Shown piece by piece: positions 1 to 62,382 of a stretch of 64,000 nucleotides of DNA. Both the position numbers and the translations under genes were made by a program. The stretch is from Verrucomicrobiota bacterium. Lineage in GTDB: Bacteria; Verrucomicrobiota; Verrucomicrobiia; Limisphaerales; UBA11358. Within the stretch, counting starts at the first letter, position 1, and each line of letters opens with the position of its first letter. The DNA is taken from assembly GCA_049511835.1 (NCBI GenBank), contig JBEKXN010000002.1, positions 11,219 through 75,218 of the forward strand. Reading direction: 5' to 3'. The notes under the pieces were generated by a model, which had not been told where the DNA came from, did no database searches, and was given only the letters and a program-made list of their open reading frames with translations.

Positions 1-1287
1 GTCGCGCGGAAGCTGGGCATGAAGGTCGAGGAATTCGCCGTCGGTTTCGGCCCGAAAATTCACAGTTGGAAGCGCGAGGGCATTGAATACTCGATCCGTT
101 GGATTCCGGCCGGCGGTTTTGTGAAGCTGCCCCAAATGGTTACCGCCGAGGCGCTCGAAGGCCAGTCGGTGGAAGAAGTTCCGCCGGCGCCGCCCGGGCA
201 CAAAATTCTCGTCGCCGCCGCCGGGCCGTTCATGAATGTGGTTTTTGCGTTCGCCATCGCCACGGTCATTTATTTTGTCGGCCTGCCGGTGCCGGTCAGT
301 CCGCCAATTATCGGCAATGTTGATCCTGATTCTCCGGAAGGCAGGTTGGGGATTCGTGAAGGTGACCGGGTGGTCATGGTGGATAAAAAACCCATAAAAT
401 CGTGGGAGGATGTCATGGAGTCCACGATGCTTGCCCGCACAAACTTGATTCCGGTGGTTATTGAACATGGCGGCGTCTCGAACACTTACAACCTGACCGC
501 CACGGTCAATGAAGTTATCGGCCTGAAAACTCTGAACCTCGACCCGCGCGAACATCCTGTGGTCGGCGCGGTGGAAGGTGGCATGCCGGCGGCGGCGGCG
601 GGCTTGCAGGCAGGTGACAAGATTCTATCTGTAAATGGAATTCCCGTGCCCGGCCAGAAACAGATGATTGAGTTGATTTCAAAATCAGCAGGCAAGCCGT
701 GTGAAATTATTTTCGACCGCAAAAATGAAAAGAAGAGCGTGACCATAACGCCGCAATACGATCCAGCTAATAAACGCGCCCGGATTGGCATCATCTTTAG
801 TGCGGGTGTCTACGAGGTGCAGTACCCGACACCTTGGGCGCAGGTCAAGGACGTTTGTGCGAAGATGGTCAGCCTTTTCAGCGCGTTGGCGCACTCCAAA
901 CAGACCGGTGTGGGCGCAAAAGATTTGGCCGGGCCGGTCGGCATCCTCGCCATGCTCGCCAGCGCGGTGAATAGTGACTATCGCTTGGCTTTGAGTTTCC
1001 TGGTGCTGCTCAACATCAACCTCGCGATCATCAATTTGCTGCCGATTCCCGTGCTCGACGGCGGACACATTTTAATGGCGATCATTGAAAAAATCCGCCG
1101 CCAGCCTTTGAGCATCAGATTTGTTGAATACACCACGACCGGCTTCGCGGTGTTGTTGATTGGCTTCATGCTTTACATCACGGTTTTTGGAGACATCAAA
1201 CGGTTTTCGCTCTATCGCGCGATGTTCAAAAACGACGTGCAAATCCAGCAATCGGCGCAGCCAGCGGCAACCGTGCCGGCAAAATAA
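1..1287 (+). CDS. rseP: RIP metalloprotease RseP (M50 site-2 protease), 5' end cut by window edge
   Basis: The frame is open from nt 1 (VARKLG precedes the ORF-track Met at 19). Contains FAVGFGPKI..IRWIPAGGFVKL, a PDZ-like middle region and the C-terminal NLLPIPVLDGGH motif. Confidence 0.9.
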   Translation, partial: VARKLGMKVEEFAVGFGPKIHSWKREGIEYSIRWIPAGGFVKLPQMVTAEALEGQSVEEVPPAPPGHKILVAAAGPFMNVVFAFAIATVIYFVGLPVPVSPPIIGNVDPDSPEGRLGIREGDRVVMVDKKPIKSWEDVMESTMLARTNLIPVVIEHGGVSNTYNLTATVNEVIGLKTLNLDPREHPVVGAVEGGMPAAAAGLQAGDKILSVNGIPVPGQKQMIELISKSAGKPCEIIFDRKNEKKSVTITPQYDPANKRARIGIIFSAGVYEVQYPTPWAQVKDVCAKMVSLFSALAHSKQTGVGAKDLAGPVGILAMLASAVNSDYRLALSFLVLLNINLAIINLLPIPVLDGGHILMAIIEKIRRQPLSIRFVEYTTTGFAVLLIGFMLYITVFGDIKRFSLYRAMFKNDVQIQQSAQPAATVPAK

Positions 1288-1294
1288 TTTCCCC

Positions 1295-3157
1295 ATGCGC
1301 TACTGCGAATCCCCGTTTTTCCATCACCGGCGAAAGACCCGCGAGGTCGTCATCGGCGATCCGGCACACGGCGGGGTCATCATCGGGGGCGACCATCCCG
1401 TCGTGAAGCAGTCCATGCTCACGTGCGACACGATGGACACCGCTGAATGCGTGAAGCAGACGCTTGAGCTCGTTACCGTCGGCTGCCAGCTCGTCCGCAT
1501 CACCGCGCCGACGGTGAAGGACGCGGCGAATTTACAGCACATCGTTGCCGAACTGCGCCAGCGCGGTTGCCTGGTGCCGATAGTTGCTGACATCCATTTC
1601 AAGCCCGAAGCCGCAATGGAAGCGGTGAAATGGGTTGAGGTGGTGCGCGTCAATCCCGGCAATTACGCCGACTCGAAGAAATTTGCGACCAAGGAATACA
1701 CGGACGAGCAATACACCGCCGAGTTGAAGCGCATTGAGGAGAAATTCACGCCGCTCGTGCTGGAATGCATCCGCCGGAAACGCTGTCTGCGCATCGGCAC
1801 CAACCACGGCTCATTAAGCGACCGGATCATGAACCGCTACGGCGACACGCCGCTGGGCATGATCGAGAGCGCGCTGGAATTCGCCCGCATCTGCCGCAAG
1901 CACAACTTCCACAACTTCAAGTTCTCGATGAAGGCGAGCAATCCCAAGGTGATGATTGAGTGCTACCGGCTGTTGGTCGCCCGGTTGGAACAGGAAGGAC
2001 CGGATTGGAATTATCCAATTCATCTTGGCGTCACTGAAGCGGGCGAGGGCGAGGACGGTCGCATCAAGAGCGCCATCGGCATCGGTTCGCTGTTGTGTGA
2101 CGGTTTGGGCGACACGATTCGTGTCTCGCTCACGGAGGATTCGCCGCGGGAAATCGAGGTCTGCACCGATTTGCTGGCGCAGATTCCCCAACTGTCGAAT
2201 TCCGAACTCCGAATTCCGAACTCCGAATTTCCATTTGACCCGTTCCACTTCGAACGTCGTGAAACGCTGGAAATCGAATTGAACGGGCAGGTCAAATGCG
2301 GCGGCGAACAACTCATCCGTGTCGTGGTCACGCGCGCGACGTGGGACAAGGTCGCGCCGAAGATTCGCCCGAAAGACGACGTGAAACCGGAGGCGGTTTA
2401 CGAAGACCTGAACATTGCCGAGATTGATCCCACTCAGGATTTTGAAATCAACCCCGACTCTGCGTCGGGGCTCGTCACCGTCAAAGACGGTGTCTCGCTG
2501 CCTGTGATTACCGCGTTTCGTCTGCTCGCCGCGAAGTTGAAACGCCTGGGCCGGAACAATCCAATTTTGCTAAAGGATTGCTTGGGCTTTGGTGGTAGCC
2601 GCGGATGTGAATCCGCGGACTCATTCTCCGCGGCAAATCCGCCGATTCACATCGGCGGCTACGAAGGTGTGCTTGAACCGAAGATTGCTTTGTTGCGGGC
2701 GTCGGTGGTCATCGGTTCACTGTTGGCGGACGGCATTGGCGATGCGATTTTGATTCGCGGCGAGGCCGGCGGTGGACAATCACTGCGGCTGGCTTACAAC
2801 CTGTTGCAGGCGGCGGGTTGCCGTTCGTTCAAGACCGATTATGTGGCGTGCCCAAGTTGCGGACGTACGCTGTTCAATCTTCAGACCGTCACGGCACGTA
2901 TCAAGGCGCGCACGGAGCATCTCAAGGGCGTGAAGATAGCCATCATGGGCTGCATCGTGAACGGCCCGGGCGAGATGGCCGACGCGGATTTCGGCTACGT
3001 GGGCGGCGCGCCCGGCAAGATCAATCTCTATGTCGGCAAGCAGGCCATTAAATTCAACATCCCCGAAGCCGAAGCCGTGGACCGGCTGGTGGACCTGATC
3101 AAAGAGCACGGCAAGTGGGTGGAGCCGGAGGCGAAGGCCGGGATAATCTTCAAATAA
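1295..3157 (+). CDS. ispG: 4-hydroxy-3-methylbut-2-enyl diphosphate synthase IspG, long form with insert domain
   Basis: Start moved to ATG 1295 because the ORF-track start at 1160 overlaps rseP. Shows an N-terminal TIM-barrel signature (VKQSMLTCDT, ADIHFKPEAA, NPGNY). The C-terminal Fe-S domain has CPSCGRT...GCIVNGPGE. Confidence 0.92.
   Translation: MRYCESPFFHHRRKTREVVIGDPAHGGVIIGGDHPVVKQSMLTCDTMDTAECVKQTLELVTVGCQLVRITAPTVKDAANLQHIVAELRQRGCLVPIVADIHFKPEAAMEAVKWVEVVRVNPGNYADSKKFATKEYTDEQYTAELKRIEEKFTPLVLECIRRKRCLRIGTNHGSLSDRIMNRYGDTPLGMIESALEFARICRKHNFHNFKFSMKASNPKVMIECYRLLVARLEQEGPDWNYPIHLGVTEAGEGEDGRIKSAIGIGSLLCDGLGDTIRVSLTEDSPREIEVCTDLLAQIPQLSNSELRIPNSEFPFDPFHFERRETLEIELNGQVKCGGEQLIRVVVTRATWDKVAPKIRPKDDVKPEAVYEDLNIAEIDPTQDFEINPDSASGLVTVKDGVSLPVITAFRLLAAKLKRLGRNNPILLKDCLGFGGSRGCESADSFSAANPPIHIGGYEGVLEPKIALLRASVVIGSLLADGIGDAILIRGEAGGGQSLRLAYNLLQAAGCRSFKTDYVACPSCGRTLFNLQTVTARIKARTEHLKGVKIAIMGCIVNGPGEMADADFGYVGGAPGKINLYVGKQAIKFNIPEAEAVDRLVDLIKEHGKWVEPEAKAGIIFK
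2195..2232. repeat. 14-bp tandem repeat GAATTCCGAACTCC (about 2.5 copies), in frame inside ispG
   Basis: Read directly: tcgaattccgaactccgaattccgaactccgaatttcc, translated as SNSELRIPNSEF. Related CCGAAYTCCGA strings occur at 16120, 18541, 25731 and 60306. Confidence 0.8.
2595..2661. repeat. Double-hairpin REP-like element with GTAGC...GCTAC ends, in frame inside ispG
   Basis: GTAGCCGCGGATGTGAATCCGCGGAC...AATCCGCCGATTCACATCGGCGGCTAC contains two perfect 8-bp-stem hairpins. A related string (cacatccgcggac...aatccgcc) lies at 34555-34590. Confidence 0.7.
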
Positions 3158-16059: not shown

Positions 16060-16111
16060 TGTAGTGTCGGCGCTGTGCGCCGATTCGCTCGATCCACAGG
16101 CTCGACGCTAC
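16060..16111. repeat. REP family A copy (TGTAG..GTCG..hairpin..CGACGCTACA)
   Basis: tgtagtgtcggcgctgtgcgccgattcgctcgatccacaggctcgacgctaca. It has the same ends and arm as the REPs flanking the RAYT gene. Confidence 0.75.
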
Positions 16112-16325
16112 ATCCACATTCCGAATTCCGCATGGGCAGTGGACTTTTTTCCTGAATGCATTTTGGGCTGGATTTGGACGCCATTTGCCCTTGATTTGGC
16201 CAGCGATGAGCCATAGCGTTTGGTCAAAACCAAGCAATCATGCCGGCTCAATGTTTTCCAGCTTAATATCAACTTGGCTTGAAAAGAGTCAATGGAATTA
16301 AATAGTTAAACCACGTCAGCACGCC

Positions 16326-18023: not shown

Positions 18024-20846
18024 ATGGCCGACCGTTTGCCCATTTACGAAATCGAGCGCGACATTATCGCCCGGCTGAAAACCGACCGGCGGCTGATTTT
18101 GTCCGCGCCGACCGGCTCCGGCAAATCCACCCAGGTTCCGCAGATGCTGCTCCAGCACGGATTGCTGGGCGACGGGCAGGTTGTGATTCTCCAGCCGCGC
18201 CGGCTGGCCACGCGGTTGCTCGCATCGCGCGTGGCGCAGGAACTCGGCGTCCAGCTCGGCAACGAGGTTGGCTACCAAATCCGCTTCGAAAATGTCACAT
18301 CACAGCAGACGAAAATCCGTTTTGAGACCGAAGGCATCTTGTTGCGGCAGATGATTGACGACCCGAATTTGCGCGGGATTTCCGTTCTGATCTTCGACGA
18401 GTTTCACGAACGCCATCTTTACGGCGACATCACGCTGGCGCGCGCGCTCGATTTACAGGAGCAGCACCGACCTGACCTGAATCTCATCGTCATGTCTGCG
18501 ACGCTGGATGTGGAGTTGCTGGGGGATTATTTATCGGAGCGCCGAACTCCGATTCGGCGTGATGAAGTTGGAGTTCAAGCTTCAGCTTGTTCGGGCGGCA
18601 GGCTGAAGCCTGAACTCCAACACGCCGTGCCGGAGGCCGGCGCTCCAAAGTGTTCCATCTTGTCTGCTGAGGGCCGGGTATTTCCGGTTGATGTCAAATA
18701 CGCCGCGCAGCCAAGTTACACGGACAAACGGCCGGTTTGGGAGCAGGCGGCCGAGGCTTTCAGTCAGTACGTTGGCTCCGGTGGGGAAGGCGACGTGCTG
18801 GTGTTCATGCCGGGCGGCTATGAAATATCGCAGACTATTGAGGCCATCCGTCACACTTCGGAGTCGGAAGGTTTTATTTTGCTTCCGCTGCACGGCGAAC
18901 TTTCCCCCAAAGATCAGGACGCCGCGGTGGCGCGTTACGGCCAGCGCAAAGTGGTCGTTTCCACCAATGTCGCCGAGACCTCGCTGACCATTGACGGCAT
19001 CCGGCTGGTGATTGACAGCGGCCTGGCGCGCATTCCGCGTTACGATCCGTATCGCGGCATCAACACGCTGCTCATCGAGAAGATCAGCCAATCGTCAGCG
19101 GACCAAAGGACGGGTCGGGCGGGCCGCACCGCGCCGGGTGTTTGCATGCGGCTTTGGTCACGGGAGGAACATGGACATCGTGCGGTGCAGGAACTGCCGG
19201 AAATCAAGCGGCTTGACCTGGCCGAAGTGGTGCTCACGCTCAAAGCTGCCGAGGTCGAAGATTTGCGGAAATTCCGCTGGCTCGAACCACCCGATGAACA
19301 AAGCCTGGTCCACGCAGAGGAATTGTTGGTGGATTTGGGGGCGCTTTACAATGTGGCACAGGTGTCCTCACCTGTGAACGAAAACCAGATTGGCAGAATT
19401 TCAGAACACAGGCCGGAGGCCTGTGCCACACAAATCACGCCCATCAGCCCCAAGATCAGCGTGGCACAGGCGTCTCCGCCTGTGAACGAAAACCAGATTG
19501 GCAGAATTTCAGAACACAGGCCGGAGGCCTGTGCCACACAAATCACCCCCATCGGCCGCAAGATGCTCGCGTTTCCGCTGCATCCGCGTTATTCGCGCAT
19601 GTTGCTTGCCGCCCACGAGTATGGTTGCGTTCATCAAGCCTGCCTCGTTGCCGCGCTCACGCAGGGGCGCGACTTGCTGCTCCGTAATGTTGACCGCGAC
19701 ACGAACTCGTTCCGCGAGGATTTGCTCGGCGAGAAGGCGTCATCGGATTTCTGGATTCTCATGCGCGCGTGGGCTTATGCGGCGAAGAACCAGTTTCGTC
19801 TCGACGCCTGCCGCCGGCTTGGCATTCACGCCGTTACCGCGCGGCAGGTTGGGCCGCTGTTCGAACAGTTCCTTCGCATCGCCAAAGACGAAGGTCTTGA
19901 TGTCAAACCGCGCGAAGTGAAGGACGAGGCGTTGCAAAAGTGCATTCTCATCGGGTTCAGCGACCGGGTGGCGCGGCGGCTGGATCAAGGCACGCTGCGG
20001 TGTGAATTGGTCCACAATCGTCGCGGTGTGCTGGCGCGTGAAAGTGCAGTGCAACACAGCCCCTTGTTCGTTGCCGCCGAAGTCCGCGAAGTCGAGGGCC
20101 GGGAAGTGAACACCATTCTTTCCCTCGCCACCGCCATTGAGGTGGACTGGTTGCGCGAACTTTACCCCGAAGACATGGAATCCGACCTGCATGTCCAATT
20201 CGATTCAACGGCCAAGCGGGTGCAAGCTGCGGAGCTGGTGAAATTTCGCGGCCTGGCGCTGTCGGCCAAGCGCGTTGAACCGCCGCCGGCCGACAGGGCG
20301 GCACGATTGCTGGCCGATGAGATCATTGCCGGACGATTGCCGTTGCCGAATTGGGACCACAGCGTCGAGCAATGGCTGTTGCGGCTGCGCCTGCTTTGCC
20401 AGCATTGTCCCGAACTCCAGCTTCCACCCATCACCGAAGACGACCGCAGGCACATCATCGGACAGCTTTGCCACGGCGCGGTGAGTTACAAGGACATCAA
20501 GGAACGCGAAGTGAAACCGGTCGTGATGTCGTGGCTGTCCGCGGCGCAACGCGAATTGATGGACAAGCACGCGCCGGAGCGGTTGACGCTGCCGAACGGC
20601 CGGACGCCGAAGGTGGCTTACGAGACAGCTGGCCCGCCGCATATTTCGTTGCGCATCCAGGAGCTTTACGACGTGACCCAGACGCCGAAGATTGCGCTGG
20701 GCCGCGTACCGGTGCTGGTTCACATTTTGACCCCGGGCATGAAGCCGATACAAATTACACAGGACCTGGCCAGTTTCTGGCGCGAGCACTATCCGCGCAT
20801 CAAATCCGAGCTGCAGCGGAAATATCCGAAACATCTGTGGCGATGA
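18024..20846 (+). CDS. hrpB: ATP-dependent RNA helicase HrpB (DEAH-box family)
   Basis: Start moved to ATG 18024. Helicase motifs APTGSGKST, IFDEFHERH, MSATLD, TNVAETSLTI and QRTGRAGR, plus an HrpB-type C-terminal domain. Confidence 0.92.
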   Translation: MADRLPIYEIERDIIARLKTDRRLILSAPTGSGKSTQVPQMLLQHGLLGDGQVVILQPRRLATRLLASRVAQELGVQLGNEVGYQIRFENVTSQQTKIRFETEGILLRQMIDDPNLRGISVLIFDEFHERHLYGDITLARALDLQEQHRPDLNLIVMSATLDVELLGDYLSERRTPIRRDEVGVQASACSGGRLKPELQHAVPEAGAPKCSILSAEGRVFPVDVKYAAQPSYTDKRPVWEQAAEAFSQYVGSGGEGDVLVFMPGGYEISQTIEAIRHTSESEGFILLPLHGELSPKDQDAAVARYGQRKVVVSTNVAETSLTIDGIRLVIDSGLARIPRYDPYRGINTLLIEKISQSSADQRTGRAGRTAPGVCMRLWSREEHGHRAVQELPEIKRLDLAEVVLTLKAAEVEDLRKFRWLEPPDEQSLVHAEELLVDLGALYNVAQVSSPVNENQIGRISEHRPEACATQITPISPKISVAQASPPVNENQIGRISEHRPEACATQITPIGRKMLAFPLHPRYSRMLLAAHEYGCVHQACLVAALTQGRDLLLRNVDRDTNSFREDLLGEKASSDFWILMRAWAYAAKNQFRLDACRRLGIHAVTARQVGPLFEQFLRIAKDEGLDVKPREVKDEALQKCILIGFSDRVARRLDQGTLRCELVHNRRGVLARESAVQHSPLFVAAEVREVEGREVNTILSLATAIEVDWLRELYPEDMESDLHVQFDSTAKRVQAAELVKFRGLALSAKRVEPPPADRAARLLADEIIAGRLPLPNWDHSVEQWLLRLRLLCQHCPELQLPPITEDDRRHIIGQLCHGAVSYKDIKEREVKPVVMSWLSAAQRELMDKHAPERLTLPNGRTPKVAYETAGPPHISLRIQELYDVTQTPKIALGRVPVLVHILTPGMKPIQITQDLASFWREHYPRIKSELQRKYPKHLWR
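18541..18621. repeat. Hairpin repeat family F (GCCGAACTCCGATTCGGC plus a long 20-bp-stem hairpin), in frame inside hrpB
   Basis: gccgaactccgattcggc followed by gttggagttcaagcttcagc...ggctgaagcctgaactccaac. The GCCGAACTCCGATTCGGC core recurs at 25731 and 60306. Confidence 0.75.
19353..19568. repeat. REP family C, two tandem 108-bp copies, in frame inside hrpB
   Basis: Each copy reads GTGGCACAGG-hairpin...CACAGGCCGGAGGCCTGTGCCAC. The copies start at 19353 and 19461. They are translated as two 36-aa units VAQ(V/A)[26 protein letters not shown].... Confidence 0.9.
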
Positions 20847-21400
20847 AAAAAGAAATCATTTGTAGCGTCGAGCCTGCGGCTCGAACGAATCGAGGCACAG
20901 CCCCGACGCTACAGCTTTGCCCGAAGTGCGGGCTGTGCTGCAATGGTGTCTTGTTTGCCGATGTGGAATTGCGAAAGGGCGATGACGTCCAACGACTGGC
21001 CGAACTTGGATTGTCGTTGGAGGGAAAAGGCCGCCAACGGGCTTTCGCGCAGCCGTGCGCCTGTTTCAATGGCATGCTTTGCCGGATTTATGCGGAACGT
21101 CCCGCGTATTGCCGGGCGTTTGAATGTGGTTTGTTGAAGCGCGTTCAGGCTGGTGAGCTTGGCGCAGGTGCGGCGTTGGAAACGATTGCCCAAGCCAAAC
21201 GTCAGGTGGAAAAAGTTTGTGAACTTTTGCGCGGCACGGGTTCGGATGACGGGCGACTCGCGTTGAGTCAACGCTACGGGCGGGCCATGAGCGAGCCGGT
21301 TGATTTATCTGGCGGGGAAACGTCAGCCAGATTGCCCGGTAAACTGATGACAATCTATCGCAATTTGATGCAGACGCTCCAGCGGGATTTTTTAGCGTGA
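20843..21400 (+). CDS. YkgJ/UPF0153-like Cys-rich (CxxCxxCC) putative Fe-S/zinc protein
   Basis: Start at ATG 20843 in an ATGA overlap with the hrpB stop. The ORF-track extension back to 20351 lies inside hrpB. Motifs CPKCGLCCNG and CACF..LCRIY..RPAYCRAFEC. Confidence 0.75.
   Translation: MKKEIICSVEPAARTNRGTAPTLQLCPKCGLCCNGVLFADVELRKGDDVQRLAELGLSLEGKGRQRAFAQPCACFNGMLCRIYAERPAYCRAFECGLLKRVQAGELGAGAALETIAQAKRQVEKVCELLRGTGSDDGRLALSQRYGRAMSEPVDLSGGETSARLPGKLMTIYRNLMQTLQRDFLA
20861..20913. repeat. REP family A copy, translated as residues 7-24 of the YkgJ-like protein
   Basis: tgtagcgtcgagcctgcggctcgaacgaatcgaggcacagccccgacgctaca. Confidence 0.8.
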
Positions 21401-21879: not shown

Positions 21880-21979
21880 GTAGCGCAGGCTTCCAGCCTG
21901 CGGGTCCGGGTGACTTTCCAGTCACCCGAAACGGAACTGGGAAGTTCCTCAACCAGCAGACAGGAATGTCTGCTCTACA
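21880..21979. repeat. Four-hairpin repeat family E
   Basis: GTAGCGCAGGCTTCCAGCCTGCG, GGTGACTTTCCAGTCACC, GGAACTGGGAAGTTCC and GCAGACAGGAATGTCTGCTCTACA. The reverse-complement copy is at 62281-62382. Confidence 0.85.
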
Positions 21980-26002: not shown

Positions 26003-29002
26003 ATGAAAGCGACCCTTATCAAAGAGAAAAAATCGGTTGAGCCGTCGCCCCAGGTGCAAACCGCGCCGGGCAATTTGGAAAACCGGATCGGGGCCGAACC
26101 AACCTGCGAGCGTGACTTGTTGCGGACGCTGATTGACGGCCTGCCCGATAACATTTTCATCAAAGACCGGCAAAGCCGGTTTCTGATCAGCAATCTGGCG
26201 CACGTACGGACGTTGGGCGTGACCCGTCTCGACGAGGTGATTGGTAAAACCGACCTCGATATTTTTCCGCCGGAATTAGCCAATCGATATTATGGGGATG
26301 AACAGGCGCTGATGGAATCCGGCCAATCGCTGAATCGGGAAGAAATGGTGGTGAATCCGCGAACCGGCGAGAAGCGCTGGCTGCAAACCACGAAAGTGCC
26401 GCTGAGAGACAAGGAGGGGAAGGTCGTCGGGCTGATGGGCATCAACCGGGACATCACGGATCGGAAGCGGGCGGAAGAGGCGCTGGCCAGTGCGCATCGG
26501 CTGTTGGAAGCGATGCTGGACAACATTCCTGACCGGATTTATTTTAAAGACACCCAATGCCGGTTCGTTCAATGCAACCGGGCGGTTGCCAGGCGCGTGG
26601 GCGTGGAAGATCCCAAACAGGTCATCGGTAAAACGGACTTTGATTTTTACCCTCCGGAAAAGGCCGAGGAGTTCCGGAAGGATGATCAAAGGATTATGCA
26701 GAGCGGCGAGCCGTTGCTCAACAAGACCGAGCAGGTCATCAAGCCCAACGGCGAAATGACTTGGTCGTCCATTGCCAAAGTGCCGCTGCGAGACAGGGAA
26801 GGGAAAATCGTGGGTTTGGTGGGCATCAGCCGGGACATTACGGATCAGAAACGAGCGGAGGAGGTCCTGCGCCAATCGCGCGACGAACTGGAGAAACGGG
26901 TCGCCGAACGCACCGCTGAACTTTCACACGAACGCCTGCTGCTGCGAACGCTCATTGACAACCTGCCGGACGGCATCTACGCCAAGGACACCGCCGGCCG
27001 GAAGACGCTGGCCAATCCGGCTGACCTGAAAAACCTCCGCTGCAAAACCGAAGCCGAGGCGATCGGCAAAAGCGATTTCGATTTTTATCCGCACGACATT
27101 GCCGAAAAATTCCAAGCCGACGACCAGAGTGTAATTCAGGGCCAGCCGGTCATCAACCGGGAGGAGTATTTCTTCGACGGCGAGGGCCAGAAGCGCTGGT
27201 TGTTGACCAGCAAGCTGCCGTTGCACGATCAAAACGGAACAATCGTCGGTCTGGTGGGCATCGGCCGGGACATCACGGAACGTAAGCGGGCGGAAGAGAT
27301 GTTGGTCAGGGAACGCCTCCTGCTGCGGACGCTGATAGACAACCTGCCGGACGGCATTTACGCCAAGGACACCGCCGGCCGCAAGACCCTGGCCAATCCG
27401 GCCGACTTGAAGGTTATGGGGTGCAAGACGGAAGCCGAGGCCGTCGGCAAGAGCGATTTCGATTTCTTTCCCAAGGACATTGCCGAAAAATTTTGGGCCG
27501 ACGATCAAAAGGTGATTGAGGGCCAACCGGTCATCAACCGGGAGGAGTATTTCTTCAACGAAAAAGGCCGGAAATGTTGGTTGTTGACCAGCAAGCTGCC
27601 GTTGCGCGATCAGGACGAAAAGATCTTCGGCCTGGTGGGCATTGGCCGGGACATCACCGACCGGAAACTGACCGAAGCCAAGCTGGCTCATGAGCGCGAC
27701 CTGCTGAACACCCTCATGGACAACACGCCGGACCTTTTTTACTTCAAGGACCTTCAGTCGCGCTTCGTGCGGGTGAGCAAATCCACGCTGAAGTATTCAT
27801 TTGAATCGGCCCTGAAACGCCACCGCTCCAGTCACCAATCCCCTGACGCCGGGGAACTGCCACCGCACCTGGCCAGCCTGGAAGAGTTCAAAAAGTATCT
27901 GATTGGCAAAACGGATTTCGACGTCCTCGACGAGGAACGCGCCCGGTCGACATACAACGACGAGCAGGAGATCATCCGTACCGGCCAGCCCATCATCGGC
28001 AAACTCAGACGCACGACCATGCCCGACGGCACGGTTGGCTGGCGGATCACCAACAAGATGCCCTGGCGTGACAAGGACGGGAAGATCATCGGTACCTTCG
28101 GCACTGGCCGGGACATCACAGCCATCAAGGAAGCTGAAGCCAAGCTCGAGCAAAGCCACAAACAGCTTCTGGAAGTCTCGCGCCAGGCCGGGATGGCTGA
28201 AGTGGCCACCAGTGTCCTTCACAATGTCGGCAATGTGCTGAATAGCGTCAATGTCGCGTCCTCTTGTGTTGCCGACAGCCTCAGGAACTCCAAGGCAGCC
28301 AACCTGTCCAAAATTGTCGCTTTGCTGCGTGAGCACGAAGCGGACTTGGGCCATTTCATCGCCAATGATCCCAAAGGCAAACAGTTGCCCGGGTATCTGG
28401 CGCAACTGGCCGGGTATCTGGCTGGCGAACAAACCGACGCTTTGGATAAACTTGCCCGGCTGCAAAAGAACATCGAGCACATCCGGGAAATTGTTGCCAT
28501 GCAACAAAACTACGCGAAGGCTTCAGGTGTCCTTGAGTCGTTGCCCATTGTTGATCTGGTGGAAGACGCCGTTCGAATGAATGTCGGCTCACTGGAGCGT
28601 CATAATGTAAAGATGCTGCGCGAATATTCCGAAACGCCCCTGGTTTTGGTGGACAAGCACAAAGTGCTGCAAATTTTGGTGAACCTGATCAGCAATGCCA
28701 AACATGCCTGCAAAGATTCTGAAAAGCCGGACAAACAAATCACCCTGCGCGTGGCGAATGAAAAGGAACGGATCAAAATATCAGTCATTGATAACGGCGT
28801 CGGCATTCCCGCGGAAAATATGACCCGGATTTTCAATTACGGATTCACAACCAGAAAAGACGGCCACGGCTTCGGCCTTCACAATGGCGCCCTGGCCGCA
28901 AAAGAAATGGGCGGAAGCCTTGCCGCTTTCAGCGAAGGACCGGGGCGGGGAGCCACCTTTACGCTGGAACTGCCAATCCAGGGACAAAAGGCAAACGTAT
29001 GA
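26003..29002 (+). CDS. Multi-PAS sensor histidine kinase (cytoplasmic, about 6 PAS units)
   Basis: Repeated PAS blocks each ending GI(N/S/G)RDIT(D/E)(R/Q)K. DHp H-box [15 protein letters not shown] (His codon at 28220-28222). HATPase motifs DNGVGI and GHGFGL. Confidence 0.9.
26930..27691. repeat. Internal tandem duplication of one PAS unit (2 x 381 bp)
   Basis: [34 protein letters not shown]...GIGRDIT occurs twice, starting at 26930 and 27311. Long stretches are nucleotide-identical. Confidence 0.85.
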
Positions 29003-40463: not shown

Positions 40464-40530
40464 TTGCAGCGTTGAGCCTGCGGCTTGCTAAATCGTTCAG
40501 ATAAAATCGGCGCACAACGCCGGCGCTACA
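40464..40530. repeat. REP family A-like copy
   Basis: ttgcagcgttgagcctgcggcttg...cggcgcacaacgccggcgctaca. Confidence 0.6.
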
Positions 40531-40714
40531 ACTTCGAAGCGTCTGCGTCAGTAGTTTCTTCTTGGCTCTCCAAATGCTTTATCTCAGTTGAGCTTATTAT
40601 GCGAACCAACGATAAGAGGCGATGTGCACAAGATGAAGGCGGGCCGCGTCTGAATTCTGGACAGGGCCGGGCTTCAGAAGGCAGCACTGTCGCCGTCATG
40701 CAAAAGGGGTTTGC

Positions 40715-42423: not shown

Positions 42424-42478
42424 TGTGGCACAGACCTCTGGTCTGTGTTTTGGCACACAGGCCGGAGGCCTGTGCCAC
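42424..42478. repeat. REP family C copy
   Basis: tgtggcacagacctctggtctgtg...cacaggccggaggcctgtgccac. Confidence 0.85.
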
Positions 42479-42614: not shown

Positions 42615-43016
42615 TTAAAGTCGGGGGTAGTGTGATGCGTCTCTTGCGGACTTGCACGGGATGCGATTTGGCCGGGACAACTTGGGAGACTTTTTGCTGC
42701 CGGCGGCGATTTGAATCGCACGATGCGCCCAAGCCACCAACTCTTCCCGGTTTTCCAGCACGTCCGGCGGCACTTCGTGATAACCCATCGTCATCACGCG
42801 CCCCTTCATCTCGTAGGTGAACGGTCCCATGCCGCGCGCAATATAGTCAGCCTGCGACAGCGTGTCCGTTTTGAAAAACAGCCGGCCCTCGTCCAGAATT
42901 GCGAAGAAGGACTCACCCTGATACAACCCATGCGCGCCAAACATTGCCCGGGCACGCACGTCCGGCAACGCGCTCAACTGGTCGAGCACAAATTCTTTGA
43001 ACGAGTCATCCGCCAT
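42615..43016 (-). CDS. TfoX N-terminal domain protein
   Basis: Start moved to ATG 43016. MADDSFKEFVLDQLSALPDVRARAMFGAHGLYQGESFFAILDEGRLFFKTD is typical of the TfoX_N fold. Confidence 0.8.
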   Translation of the reverse strand: MADDSFKEFVLDQLSALPDVRARAMFGAHGLYQGESFFAILDEGRLFFKTDTLSQADYIARGMGPFTYEMKGRVMTMGYHEVPPDVLENREELVAWAHRAIQIAAGSKKSPKLSRPNRIPCKSARDASHYPRL

Positions 43017-43338
43017 TGCTGCGAAAGATTTAACGCAAAAATCGCGGCCTGTCACGCCGCAGCCGAAAGCGAAAGAGAAAGGTGCAAAGTCAAAAAGCAA
43101 TAGCGGCAACTCTGGGAACATTGCCATTGCGGCGGGTGGAGTTGTTTGTTGGTTGCCTTAAAGCCGGTCGGGATATCGGCCTTTGCTCTGAAGCTTCGGC
43201 GCGACCGACTGGCTTCTCCGGAGGTGTGCGCCATGGTTCAAAAATATGTGTTACCTAAAGGAATAGAGGAAGTTGCGCAAATTGCCAATAATTTTCCTTG
43301 TCTTTTTCCGGAACATGTCCCATACTTAGACAGTTGTT

Positions 43339-50257: not shown

Positions 50258-50351
50258 AGGCAAATTGGATTCATCCGATGCTGCCAAACAAACCACCGAA
50301 ATCAAACCGGCTCAAGCTTAAACCGATTCAGCTCCCGGCTTTAAAGACAAC

Positions 50352-50407
50352 TGTGGCACAGACCTCTGGTCTGTGTTGTAGGTTCACAGGCCGGAGGCCT
50401 GTGCCAC
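50352..50407. repeat. REP family C copy
   Basis: tgtggcacagacctctggtctgtg...cacaggccggaggcctgtgccac. Confidence 0.85.
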
Positions 50408-50462
50408 GAAAAGTCACGTTCTAGCATCTTTGCGCCAAGGCGTAAAAAAAATGAATTACCGC

Positions 50463-50521
50463 GACTTCGGCAACGCGTTCAGCGGGTCGGGGACAATTTC
50501 TTTGAAGGAGTTGTCGGGCAT
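50463..50521 (-). pseudogene. tfoX 5'-end relic (encodes only MPDNSFKEIVPDPLNALPKSR then stop)
   Basis: Matches the first ~55 bp of the tfoX-like gene. ATG is retained at 50519-50521 and a stop falls at 50456-50458. Confidence 0.7.
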
Positions 50522-50536
50522 GATGCAAACGTGGCG

Positions 50537-50682
50537 GAAGGATTTAACGCAACTCCGCTGACGCGCGAGCAAGCGACGCGAAGCCGCAAAGTCCAAATGC
50601 CGCGAAGCGGCAACGGAAATTAGCCGGGGACAACGTCCCCGGTTGGCATGAAGAATGTGTTACGTCCTGGCGGGACGATGGA
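50537..50682. repeat. Family G leader-type repeat copy
   Basis: See 49226-49372. Confidence 0.75.
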
Positions 50683-50688
50683 AGGTGT

Positions 50689-50714
50689 TGTAGCGGCGCT
50701 CTGTGAGCGCCGGA
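50689..50714. repeat. REP family B half-copy
   Basis: tgtagcggcgctctgtgagcgccgg, identical to 42388-42413. Confidence 0.8.
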
Positions 50715-50724
50715 AGTTAGCAAC

Positions 50725-50780
50725 TGTGGCACAGACCTCCGGTCTGTGTCATAGATTCACAGGCTGGAGGCCTGTGCCAC
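50725..50780. repeat. REP family C copy
   Basis: tgtggcacagacctccggtctgtg...cacaggctggaggcctgtgccac. Confidence 0.85.
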
Positions 50781-50835
50781 GAGAAGTCACGTCCTGACAT
50801 CTTTGTGCCTTGGTGTTGAAATGAATCAGCGCTAC

Positions 50836-50886
50836 TCCGGCAACGCGCTCAACGGGTCAGGGACAATTTCTTTGAAGGAGTCGTCG
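50836..50886 (-). pseudogene. tfoX 5'-end relic
   Basis: ccggcaacgcgctcaacgggtcagggacaatttctttgaaggagtcgtc. Confidence 0.65.
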
Positions 50887-50939
50887 CCGTAAATTTGTTG
50901 TAGTGTCGAGCCACAGGCTCAACGCTACACCGGAGAACA

Positions 50940-51440
50940 CTACACCCGATCTATCACATGAATCTCGCCTTGATACGGCCAATCATCCGGTCGCTCTACC
51001 AACTTCGCTCGCACCGGATTGTGCCAGACGTAATCCCATTTTTGCGTGTAACTTTCATCGCGCCGCAACAGATGGTCGAAAAAGCCCGGCTGCCAGAAGC
51101 TTTTCAACTTCGCGCCTGGAATCGTCGCTGGCTCGTAGCCCAGCGCTGACAACGCCTTGCCCAGACATTGTTTCAAGCCGCTTTCCCACCGCCGCAGTGT
51201 TATGTCGCGCCCGATGCGCACAAAGACATGGATGTGATCCGGCATCAAGACATAGCGTCCCGTCGCCACGTTGAATTTCAATCCGCGCTCAGCGTAGCTA
51301 CAGAACGCGGCATGCACGGAATCATTCGCGAGCAAGGGACGTTTCAACAGCGTGTTGAACGTGACAAAATAAAGCGGCGCATCGAAATGCTGGAAAAGGA
51401 TCGGCAAACGCGGCGGAGTCCCTTTGAGCTTGCGTTCCAT
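50940..51440 (-). CDS. REP-associated tyrosine transposase (RAYT; IS200/IS605 Y1 HUH family)
   Basis: Start moved to ATG 51440, giving 166 aa. The ORF-track N-terminal extension is just translated REPs. HUH motif PDHIHVFV. Catalytic Tyr region YVWHNPVRAKLV. Confidence 0.88.
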   Translation of the reverse strand: MERKLKGTPPRLPILFQHFDAPLYFVTFNTLLKRPLLANDSVHAAFCSYAERGLKFNVATGRYVLMPDHIHVFVRIGRDITLRRWESGLKQCLGKALSALGYEPATIPGAKLKSFWQPGFFDHLLRRDESYTQKWDYVWHNPVRAKLVERPDDWPYQGEIHVIDRV

Positions 51441-51484
51441 GCCGGAAAAATCCGGCGTCTGCGAAGCTTTGTCGAGCCGGAAAT

Positions 51485-51593
51485 TGTAGCGTCGAGGCTG
51501 CGCCTCGATTTTACTGTAGCGTCGAGCCTGTGGCTCGATTGGATTGCGTCGAGCCTGCGGCTCGTCCGGTTGAGCCGCAGGCTCAACGCTACA
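51485..51593. repeat. REP family A cluster (3-4 units)
   Basis: tgtagcgtcgaggctgcgcctcga..., ctgtagcgtcgagcctgtggctcga..., tgcgtcgagcctgcggctcg..., ttgagccgcaggctcaacgctaca. Confidence 0.88.
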
Positions 51594-51694: not shown

Positions 51695-52273
51695 CTATAG
51701 TCGCCTAAAATCGCACACAGTTTGATAGCACTTTTGAAACTCGGAACCGGATTCACTTGTAAGGAAAAATCCATATTCAAGCACATAGTGTCCAGCAGGC
51801 AATTTTATTGGGATGCTGACAATATTTGTTCCTGCCTTGAAAGAAAAAATGTCTTGGTAAATCATTGTGCGGCTTGTGGCAGAATCTGGTCGAAGGATTC
51901 TTACTACTAGAGGGCTCAAATCCATGAGCACCGCCGAATTTTTGATTACAAATCTAAATTCCACACGATCTTCCGAAACCACACTGTTTTCAAGGCACTC
52001 TCCCTCACCAATTAGGGAAAATGAAGCACCCTGATATTTACCAGGGAAATTATATTGATCGTGGACCGGCTTCGCGATGTTTGCCGTGTTTGTTCTTGTC
52101 GCTGATGTTAAAACTTCTGGGCTTGGTTTGAAGAACGTGTGGATTTTTTCCAAAGCATCGGTGAGTTGCCCCAGACCAATAATTATCAAGCAAACAAAGA
52201 GTAAAATTGAAATCAATCTGTGGTTTTTACACCAGCGAATGAACTCATCCACTTTTGTAATTTTTTCACCCAT
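51695..52273 (-). CDS. Hypothetical membrane-anchored protein, AT-rich orphan
   Basis: 192-aa ORF with one N-terminal TM helix (LISILLFVCLIIIGLG). Strongly AT-richer than the flanks by eye. Sits directly beside the REPtron. Confidence 0.55.
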   Translation of the reverse strand: MGEKITKVDEFIRWCKNHRLISILLFVCLIIIGLGQLTDALEKIHTFFKPSPEVLTSATRTNTANIAKPVHDQYNFPGKYQGASFSLIGEGECLENSVVSEDRVEFRFVIKNSAVLMDLSPLVVRILRPDSATSRTMIYQDIFSFKAGTNIVSIPIKLPAGHYVLEYGFFLTSESGSEFQKCYQTVCDFRRL

Positions 52274-52310: not shown

Positions 52311-54227
<1,917 letters not shown>

Positions 54228-62280: not shown

Positions 62281-62382
62281 TGTAGAGCAGACATTCCTGT
62301 CTGCTGGTGGCGGAACTTTCCAGTTCCGCTTTTGGGCGACTGGAAAGTCGCCCAAACCCGCAGGCTGGAAAGCCTGCGCTAC
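62281..62382. repeat. Four-hairpin repeat family E (reverse-complement copy of 21880-21979)
   Basis: tgtagagcagacattcctgtctgct, ggaactttccagttcc, gcgactggaaagtcgc, gcaggctggaaagcctgcgctac. Confidence 0.85.

Follow-up and report, generated by a model that had tools for sequence, protein, structure and literature searches.

Insertion sequences of the IS200/IS605 group occur in multiple copies, are mobile as a unit and lack a dispersed family of gene-less hairpins. In REPIN-RAYT systems, a single-copy and vertically inherited gene for a REP-associated tyrosine transposase (RAYT) is flanked by its own REP family (10.1101/119735), and a pattern of one RAYT per REP family has been described (PMC3733652, PMC6006769). 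The REPs of group 3 are perfect 8-bp palindromes with a 3-nt loop and a preceding GTAG, about 23 nt in all, whereas those of Escherichia coli form bulged, imperfect stems that are required by their enzyme (PMC8266576). GTAG repeats were reported from Opitutus terrae, a member of the Verrucomicrobia, by Di Nocera et al. in 2013, where REPtrons and intragenic REPs are catalogued too (PMC3733652). Earlier work covers REPtrons, REPINs and intragenic REPs as well as GTAG REPs from the PVC superphylum, in Opitutus terrae (PMC3733652; PMC3116915; 10.1101/119735).

The locus presented here lies in a 64-kb stretch of DNA (the window) from an uncultured Verrucomicrobiota bacterium of peat bog, which was analysed through its ORF listing and by direct reading of the sequence. 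We consider it very likely to be a REPtron, that is, a single-copy, chromosomally fixed RAYT gene with flanking cognate GTAG REP hairpins. The gene and its surroundings are laid out as follows.

50899..50929, unstranded: downstream REP, TGTAGTGTCGAGCCACAGGCTCAACGCTACA, a single palindrome with a 14-bp stem and GTAG/CTAC at both feet
50936..50949, minus strand: partial duplicate of the REP foot, GGTGTAGTGTT, overlapping the last codons and the stop (GTG TAG) of the gene
50940..51440, minus strand: RAYT (tnpA_REP) coding sequence, 166 aa, MERKLKG...IDRV*, with the TAG stop at 50940-50942
51441..51484, minus strand: leader between the ATG and the REP cluster, compared by eye with orthologue upstream sequences
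51485-51593: upstream REP cluster of four units, starting 44 nt from the ATG (44-153 nt upstream)
51485..51508, plus strand: upstream unit 1, TGTAGCGTCGAGGC-TGC-GCCTCGA, intact and direct, the stem being a compensated variant
51515..51538, plus strand: upstream unit 2, TGTAGCGTCGAGCC-TGT-GGCTCGA, intact and direct
51542..51593, unstranded: upstream REP doublet (units 3 and 4), which jointly fold into an 18-bp hairpin
51542-51565: upstream unit 3, GATTGCGTCGAGCCTGCGGCTCG, with a degenerate tag (ATTG)
51569-51593: upstream unit 4, inverted and intact, GTAGCGTTGAGCCTGCGGCTCAA on the minus strand

The N-terminus MERK(L/F)K is common to all orthologues, and the ATG at 51440 was therefore taken as the start of the gene; a longer ORF of 251 aa, opening with a GTG at 51695, would run across the REP cluster and was rejected. 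A tblastn search for a second RAYT found none in the 64-kb window. The locus was recovered without differences in contigs from two peat metagenome runs. DNA runs were compared for presence/absence polymorphism of REPs at the locus, and in the two best of them the gene, the cluster before it and the REP after it match the window exactly. Joints in the DNA-run contigs at 50349-50836 fall within other repeat families downstream and belong to Logan contigs of mixed populations. Comparison with the two closest full-length orthologues (loci L116 and L120) gave dN/dS values of 0.08-0.10, indicating that the RAYT gene is under purifying selection.

Assignment of the protein to the RAYT family was supported by profile, sequence and fold searches. 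The NCBIfam equivalog model NF047646 (REP_Tyr_transpos) matched over profile positions 11-145 of 146 and scored 89.6 bits, above its cutoff of 80 (E 1.7e-25). The Pfam model Y1_Tnp (PF01797), which the original prediction had named as the check on its call, does find a match, but one that stays below the gathering score (17.4 bits versus 23, E 0.0049), while a precomputed PF01797 match is present in many close homologues. The low score is a sensitivity limit of a general model, which describes the superfamily and is no criterion for RAYTs; despite the borderline Pfam score, the identity is settled by the NCBIfam model, which is more specific, and by the fold search. When all PDB sequences were searched with phmmer, the sole significant match was 4ER8, the E. 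coli TnpA_REP (E 8.9e-8), to which the protein is about 23% identical. An AF2 model based on 50 homologues (pLDDT 87.4, pTM 0.81) likewise retrieved 4er8_A at rank 1 in Foldseek (E 8.9e-9, TM 0.58-0.59), with IS200/IS605 TnpAs occupying ranks 2-30.

The HIHVF and Y-x-x-x-N-P-V blocks noticed from the start in the 166-aa ORF are present as PDHIHVF (the HUH motif, H69-I-H71) and Y137-V-W-H-N141-P-V. In the 4ER8 alignment, in which the HUH motif and the W are aligned too, Y137 corresponds to E. coli Y115, the residue changed in the catalytic mutant Y115F used by Corneloup et al. (PMC8266576), and N141 to N119, which was singled out as essential by Quentin et al. (PMC6006769). H69, H71, W116, Y137 and N141 are invariant in an alignment of 50 homologues, and more than 3,300 homologues were found in metagenomes, several of them named at source as "REP element-mobilizing transposase RayT". 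The RAYT identity first proposed from motifs was thus borne out by the NCBIfam model, by the sequence and fold match to 4ER8 and by the invariant residues. On the strength of sequence and modelled fold, the description of the protein as an HUH/Y1 nuclease of the RAYT/TnpA_REP family appears essentially right, with catalysis a predicted property.

The REPs next to the gene belong to one family, here called family A, written for this RAYT as TGTAGCGTCGAGCCTGYGGCTCGA and TGTAGCGTCGAGCCTGTGGCTCGA. The unit consists of T-GTAG-CG followed by a 7-8 bp stem (TCGAGCC/GGCTCGA) with a TGY loop, about 23-24 nt in total. The palindrome expected 10 bp past the stop was found at 50899-50929, reading TGTAGTGTCGAGCC-ACA-GGCTCAACGCTACA on the plus strand and TGTAGCGTTGAGCC-TGT-GGCTCGACACTACA in gene orientation, 10 nt past the stop codon; as single-stranded DNA it folds with -9.6 kcal/mol (z -3.5). 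In loci L118 and L123, the stop codon TAG itself doubles as part of the GTAG of the downstream REP. On the other side, the cluster anticipated as three or four REPs 45 bp from the start proved to be four units at 44 nt from the ATG, and the cluster as a whole folds with -38.6 kcal/mol (z -7.9).

Between this cluster and the ATG, the leader contains a block, CTCGACAA, followed by about 17 nt, GATTTTT and then about 6 nt to the ATG, an arrangement found in the window and in loci L116, L120 and L123, and partly in L092. This conserved block may be the RAYT's own promoter. Its CTCGAC portion resembles the REP 3' arm, and speculatively the leader may be a REP-derived promoter with a near-leaderless start. 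A sigma-70 promoter scan of the locus found no match on the RAYT strand. Only one metatranscriptome, from a wetland, shared words (4%) with the locus, its contigs being repeats from other loci, none of them over the ORF.

A first alternative to the REPtron reading is coincidence, the hairpins having nothing to do with the ORF and serving between genes as ordinary terminators or regulatory palindromes. One upstream unit is indeed terminator-like on the plus strand, but a T-tract is absent from most units, and hairpins are enriched in the window only behind particular tags. GTAG followed by a perfect hairpin occurs 34 times in the window compared with 3.0 +/- 1.6 in shuffled sequences, and with a stem of at least 7 bp 24 times compared with 0.5 +/- 0.6; GTGG-tagged hairpins are enriched as well (17 versus 2.6), while the control tags GTCG, GTTG, CTAG, GAAG and GCAG showed no enrichment in the window over shuffles. 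Twenty-two of the 34 GTAG hairpins fall outside large ORFs, in 16% of the window. For family A itself, the 13-mer GTAGYGTCGAGCC with at most two mismatches is present 10 times in the window, while dinucleotide shuffles contain 1.9 +/- 1.4 and none of 100 reaches 10, in agreement with the expectation that these REPs exceed chance.

The association between gene and hairpins is also repeated among relatives. Nine RAYT loci were compared, comprising the neighbourhoods of six homologues (62-88% identity), loci L074 and L092, and the window. GTAG hairpins adjoin the gene in all nine (62-89% amino acid identity), and on both sides wherever both flanks are present, the L074 locus ending at the 5' end of the gene. 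Most loci have a REP in gene orientation on each side (usually a TTGAGCC variant), as a rule with an inverted partner after it. The two most distant loci have other stems, TTCGGCC in L121 (72% identity) and TGCGCTC in L122 (62% identity). With REPs beside nine of nine RAYT loci, the proposal that they are cognate to the gene holds.

At L108:3859-4733, in a related MAG, lies a remote paralogue of the RAYT (35% identity over 96 aa) with the GTAGGGACGGCTGGCCCAGCCGTCC REP family on both sides; this GTAGGGACGGC... family, flanking the paralogue, is the one found inside the window's glnS gene. The L108 locus supports one RAYT per REP family in the lineage. Coincidence, against which the different GTAG family beside the paralogue and the differing stems of the two most distant loci also speak, is hardly credible as an explanation, and is refuted by the tag control and by the recurrent REP-RAYT association across relatives.

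A second alternative takes the 695-bp unit in its entirety for an autonomous insertion sequence of the IS200 type, with the REPs as its subterminal hairpins. The unit is of IS200 size (about 0.7 kb), it has a hairpin in the same orientation on each side, as at the left and right ends of IS200/IS605 elements, and the fold matches IS200/IS605 TnpA too. However, only one copy is present in 64 kb, the best HMM and structure matches are RAYTs and not IS200, and orthologues at 77-88% identity hold the same glnS-linked site; glnS, small ORF(s) and RAYT follow one another in this order in the window and in loci L116, L118 and L120. The RAYT gene is single-copy within the window and appears chromosomally fixed and not mobile on this timescale. 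Moreover, REPs are found alone as doublets, far from transposase genes. An autonomous IS200-like element is accordingly very improbable; it was rejected on copy number in the window and on synteny, and is largely refuted.

In the window, the family-A REPs that stand apart from the RAYT are the following.

16060..16113, unstranded: family-A doublet, GTAG outward, heterotypic, a TCGGCGC hairpin with a TCGATCC/GGCTCGA hairpin
20861..20913, unstranded: family-A doublet, a TCGAGCC hairpin with a TCGGGGC/GCCTCGA hairpin, directly after an ORF ending at 20846
40464..40531, unstranded: decayed family-A doublet with a GCAG tag, a broken stem and a longer spacer; partner at 40508-40529 with a CGGCGC-type stem

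The original prediction had listed copies at 16060, 20861 and 40464; all three exist, but as inverted doublets instead of single REPs, that at 40464 in a decayed state.

The family extends far beyond the window. In a scan of GTDB species-representative genomes, the exact degenerate 23-mer was present in at least 113 stretches in at least 54 assemblies, the latter figure counted from the scan matches listed, among which the window's own genome does not appear, so that family A exceeds chance in this wider sample also. Among the matches listed, nearly all assemblies are from peat, bog and soil and carry the labels Verrucomicrobiota, Verrucomicrobiia, Limisphaerales or subdivision 3, and the closest loci are 85-91% identical to the window at the DNA level. 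The REP-bearing loci L009, L016, L020, L038, L050, L057, L079 and L081 are labelled otherwise, as Methylomirabilota, Saccharimonadales, Bifidobacteriaceae, Acidoferrum and others. The 'Bifidobacteriaceae' locus, L079, is about 86% identical to the window in DNA, which suggests that at least some of these labels are mis-binned or mislabelled and do not record horizontal spread.

Sequence variation of the unit was examined in 231 units of the form GTAG-YG plus a perfect 7-bp stem, taken from the REP loci and the window. Compensated stem variants were TCGAGCC (132 units), TCGGCGC (36), TTGAGCC (17), TTCGGCC (11) and TCGAGGC (6), and the T at position -1 of GTAG, which the search pattern did not impose, is 99% conserved. 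Orientation and spacing, which had been expected to reveal BIME-like pairs, do so: 73 of 81 neighbouring REP pairs are inverted doublets with GTAG outward and a start-to-start spacing of 25-28 nt. These doublets, about 53 nt long and mostly made of a TCGAGCC hairpin and a TCGGCGC hairpin, are heterotypic and BIME/REPIN-like. Single-stranded folds of units and doublets lie well beyond those of shuffled controls, the doublets giving long hairpins.

A model for the action of the protein on these REPs can be drawn from the enzymes characterised in E. coli, S. maltophilia and Marinomonas (PMC3479197, PMC8266576). The RAYT would bind the REP hairpin together with its 5' (T)GTAG foot on single-stranded DNA and would cleave nearby through Tyr137, with a metal held by H69/H71 and a 5'-phosphotyrosine intermediate; strand rejoining would then excise, copy or insert REP doublets (REPINs/BIMEs) elsewhere in the genome. 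We infer catalysis, the cleavage site and the spread of REPs by this protein by analogy with those enzymes.

A third alternative retains a functional RAYT but one that no longer spreads REPs, the REPs being old fossils that serve the host in mRNA stabilisation, termination or protein binding, and the gene being kept for another REP-related housekeeping role. Fixation beside glnS under strong purifying selection is housekeeping-like, and RAYTs are regarded in the literature as housekeeping-like genes whose benefit is unknown (bioRxiv 10.1101/119735; PMC6006769). An identical REP 23-mer is shared by at least 54 species-level genomes, and such exact conservation across many species could reflect a selected host function of the REPs and not ongoing mobilisation. 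On the other hand, REP copy number and position vary between close relatives, some orthologous RAYT genes contain in-frame REP arrays that range from 19 to 49 aa and differ in steps of about 10 aa, and the repeat insertions of the window's glnS are missing in orthologues. The variable arrays and the glnS insertions indicate evolutionarily recent gain and loss of repeats, and the fossil reading, taken together with its housekeeping role for the RAYT, is in our estimation quite unlikely.

The arrays were found in a sister clade of RAYT orthologues, which have 19, 29, 39 or 49 additional in-frame residues after the position of window residue P108 and before that of G109; the window's own RAYT has no insert. 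They occur at L118:6334-6382 and L123:6359-6412 (P0021, P0029) and also in P0019, P0025 and P0034, and extended lengths of this kind are seen in about 18 of the best 120 homologue clusters. The inserted DNA consists of tandem family-A REP units with a period of about 30 nt (10 codons), translated as repeats such as GSTLQ.../RA.G, and the site of insertion is a surface loop. The glnS gene of the window (52311-54227, minus strand) encodes 638 aa, compared with 600-603 aa in orthologues, from which its repeat insertions are absent. It contains three in-frame insertions.

aa ~129-154 (53765-53843): insertion 1, a GTGGCACAGRCC hairpin doublet
aa ~605-618 (52375-52399): insertion 2, a GTAGGGACGGCTGGCCCAGCCGTCC REP
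aa 543-554: insertion 3, 12 aa

It is conceivable, though on the whole rather unlikely, that the locus represents a REPIN-RAYT lineage, old yet active to this day, of Verrucomicrobiota from soil and peat in which REPs invade coding sequence, including that of the RAYT gene. Should it be true that RAYT-borne arrays modulate RAYT activity, by self-targeting or autoregulation, this would be a new feature of such systems.

A block of about 170 nt is duplicated 3' of the gene, at 50348-50516 and 50721-50886 (spacing 370-373 nt), and each copy contains a GTGG-hairpin doublet and, on the minus strand, the opening ~20 codons (MPDNSFKEIVPDPLNALP...) of a gene of TfoX_N type. In loci L116 and L118 the RAYT is followed by intact TfoX_N genes, and a paralogue is present in the window at 42615-43127. 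Comparison of the duplicated partial starts with these intact genes suggests that the downstream neighbour has been truncated and duplicated.

Family A accounts for about 11-12 of the ~40 GT[AG]G hairpins in the window, or about a third. Other REP families include GTAGCGGCGCTC..., GTGGCACAGRCC... and GTAGGGACGGC..., and the window holds GT[AG]G hairpins of families other than A at the positions below.

21406/21465, 42389 and 50690: GTAGCGGCGSTC family, GT[AG]G hairpin
21880-21978 and 62282-62382: GTAGCGCAGGCT and GTAGAGCAGACA families, GT[AG]G hairpin
17053/17110: GTAGGGC family, GT[AG]G hairpin
2595/2662: GTAGCCGCSGAT family, GT[AG]G hairpin
52375: GTAGGGACGGC family, GT[AG]G hairpin
19353-19537, 42425-42478, 50353-50407, 50726-50780 and 53767-53840: GTGGCACAGRCC doublets

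None of these other GT[AG]G families directly abuts the window's RAYT, and, as the L108 result suggests, they probably have their own RAYTs outside the window. With family A at about a third and the remaining families likely served by RAYTs of their own, the RAYT described here does not drive all of the window's repeats, and the role first assigned to it in that respect was overstated.

Two further repeats were observed in coding sequence. A doublet GTAGCCGCGGATGTGAATCCGCGG / GTAGCCGCCGATGTGAATCGGCGG, with GTAG outward, lies at 2595-2662 within a 665-aa ORF (1160-3157), and is either an in-frame intragenic REPIN or a sign of two genes fused by the ORF call. A 999-aa ORF at 26003-29002 contains five tandem coding repeats of ~381-435 nt, PAS-like sensor modules by appearance, which add to the repeat load of the window and are unrelated to REPs.

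A known mechanism explains part of the repeat load, and the annotation of the region comprises a RAYT, family-A REPs and REPIN-like doublets. The well-documented REPIN-RAYT systems, for which Proteobacteria have been the main subject of study, gain a large clade of Verrucomicrobiota, uncultured and from peat and soil, and the 23-nt REP, common to dozens of species in this clade, offers a good data set for the long-term co-evolution of REPs and RAYTs. The understanding of how REPIN-RAYT systems work is unchanged.

Among described systems, the group 3 REPtrons, exemplified by REPtron Sm of S. maltophilia K279a, share with this locus the short perfect GTAG palindrome, with a stem of 7-8 bp here. 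They differ in that the present system belongs to the Verrucomicrobiota (order Limisphaerales, going by how the closest MAGs are labelled), has 1-2 nt (CG) between GTAG and the stem, and forms doublets that are mostly heterotypic (TCGAGCC with TCGGCGC). In palindrome, loop and tag, the REP looks more like those of group 3 than like the REPs of E. coli, which belong to group 2 and are bulged. The arrangement of REPs as inverted doublets is that of REPIN-RAYT systems such as the REPINs of Pseudomonas fluorescens SBW25. With the E. coli K-12 REPtron (TnpA_REP = RayT/YafM, 4ER8), the best sequence and fold match, the locus has GTAG-tagged REPs in common, and the alternation of two REP subtypes in inverted pairs recalls the Y/Z BIMEs of that species; yet the proteins are only ~23% identical, and the REPs here are perfect short palindromes. 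IS200/IS605 TnpAs (IS608, ISDra2, IS200) share the HUH-Y1 fold and the same-orientation hairpins on both sides of the gene, whereas the RAYT is single-copy in the window, syntenic and equipped with an extra C-terminal RAYT segment. The GTAG repeats of Opitutus terrae come from the same phylum and belong to the same GTAG-tagged REP superfamily, but come from a different order and presumably form a different REP sequence family. The RAYT is already recognised by the NCBI annotation model, and the locus, which is intact, is an ordinary case of a system already known.
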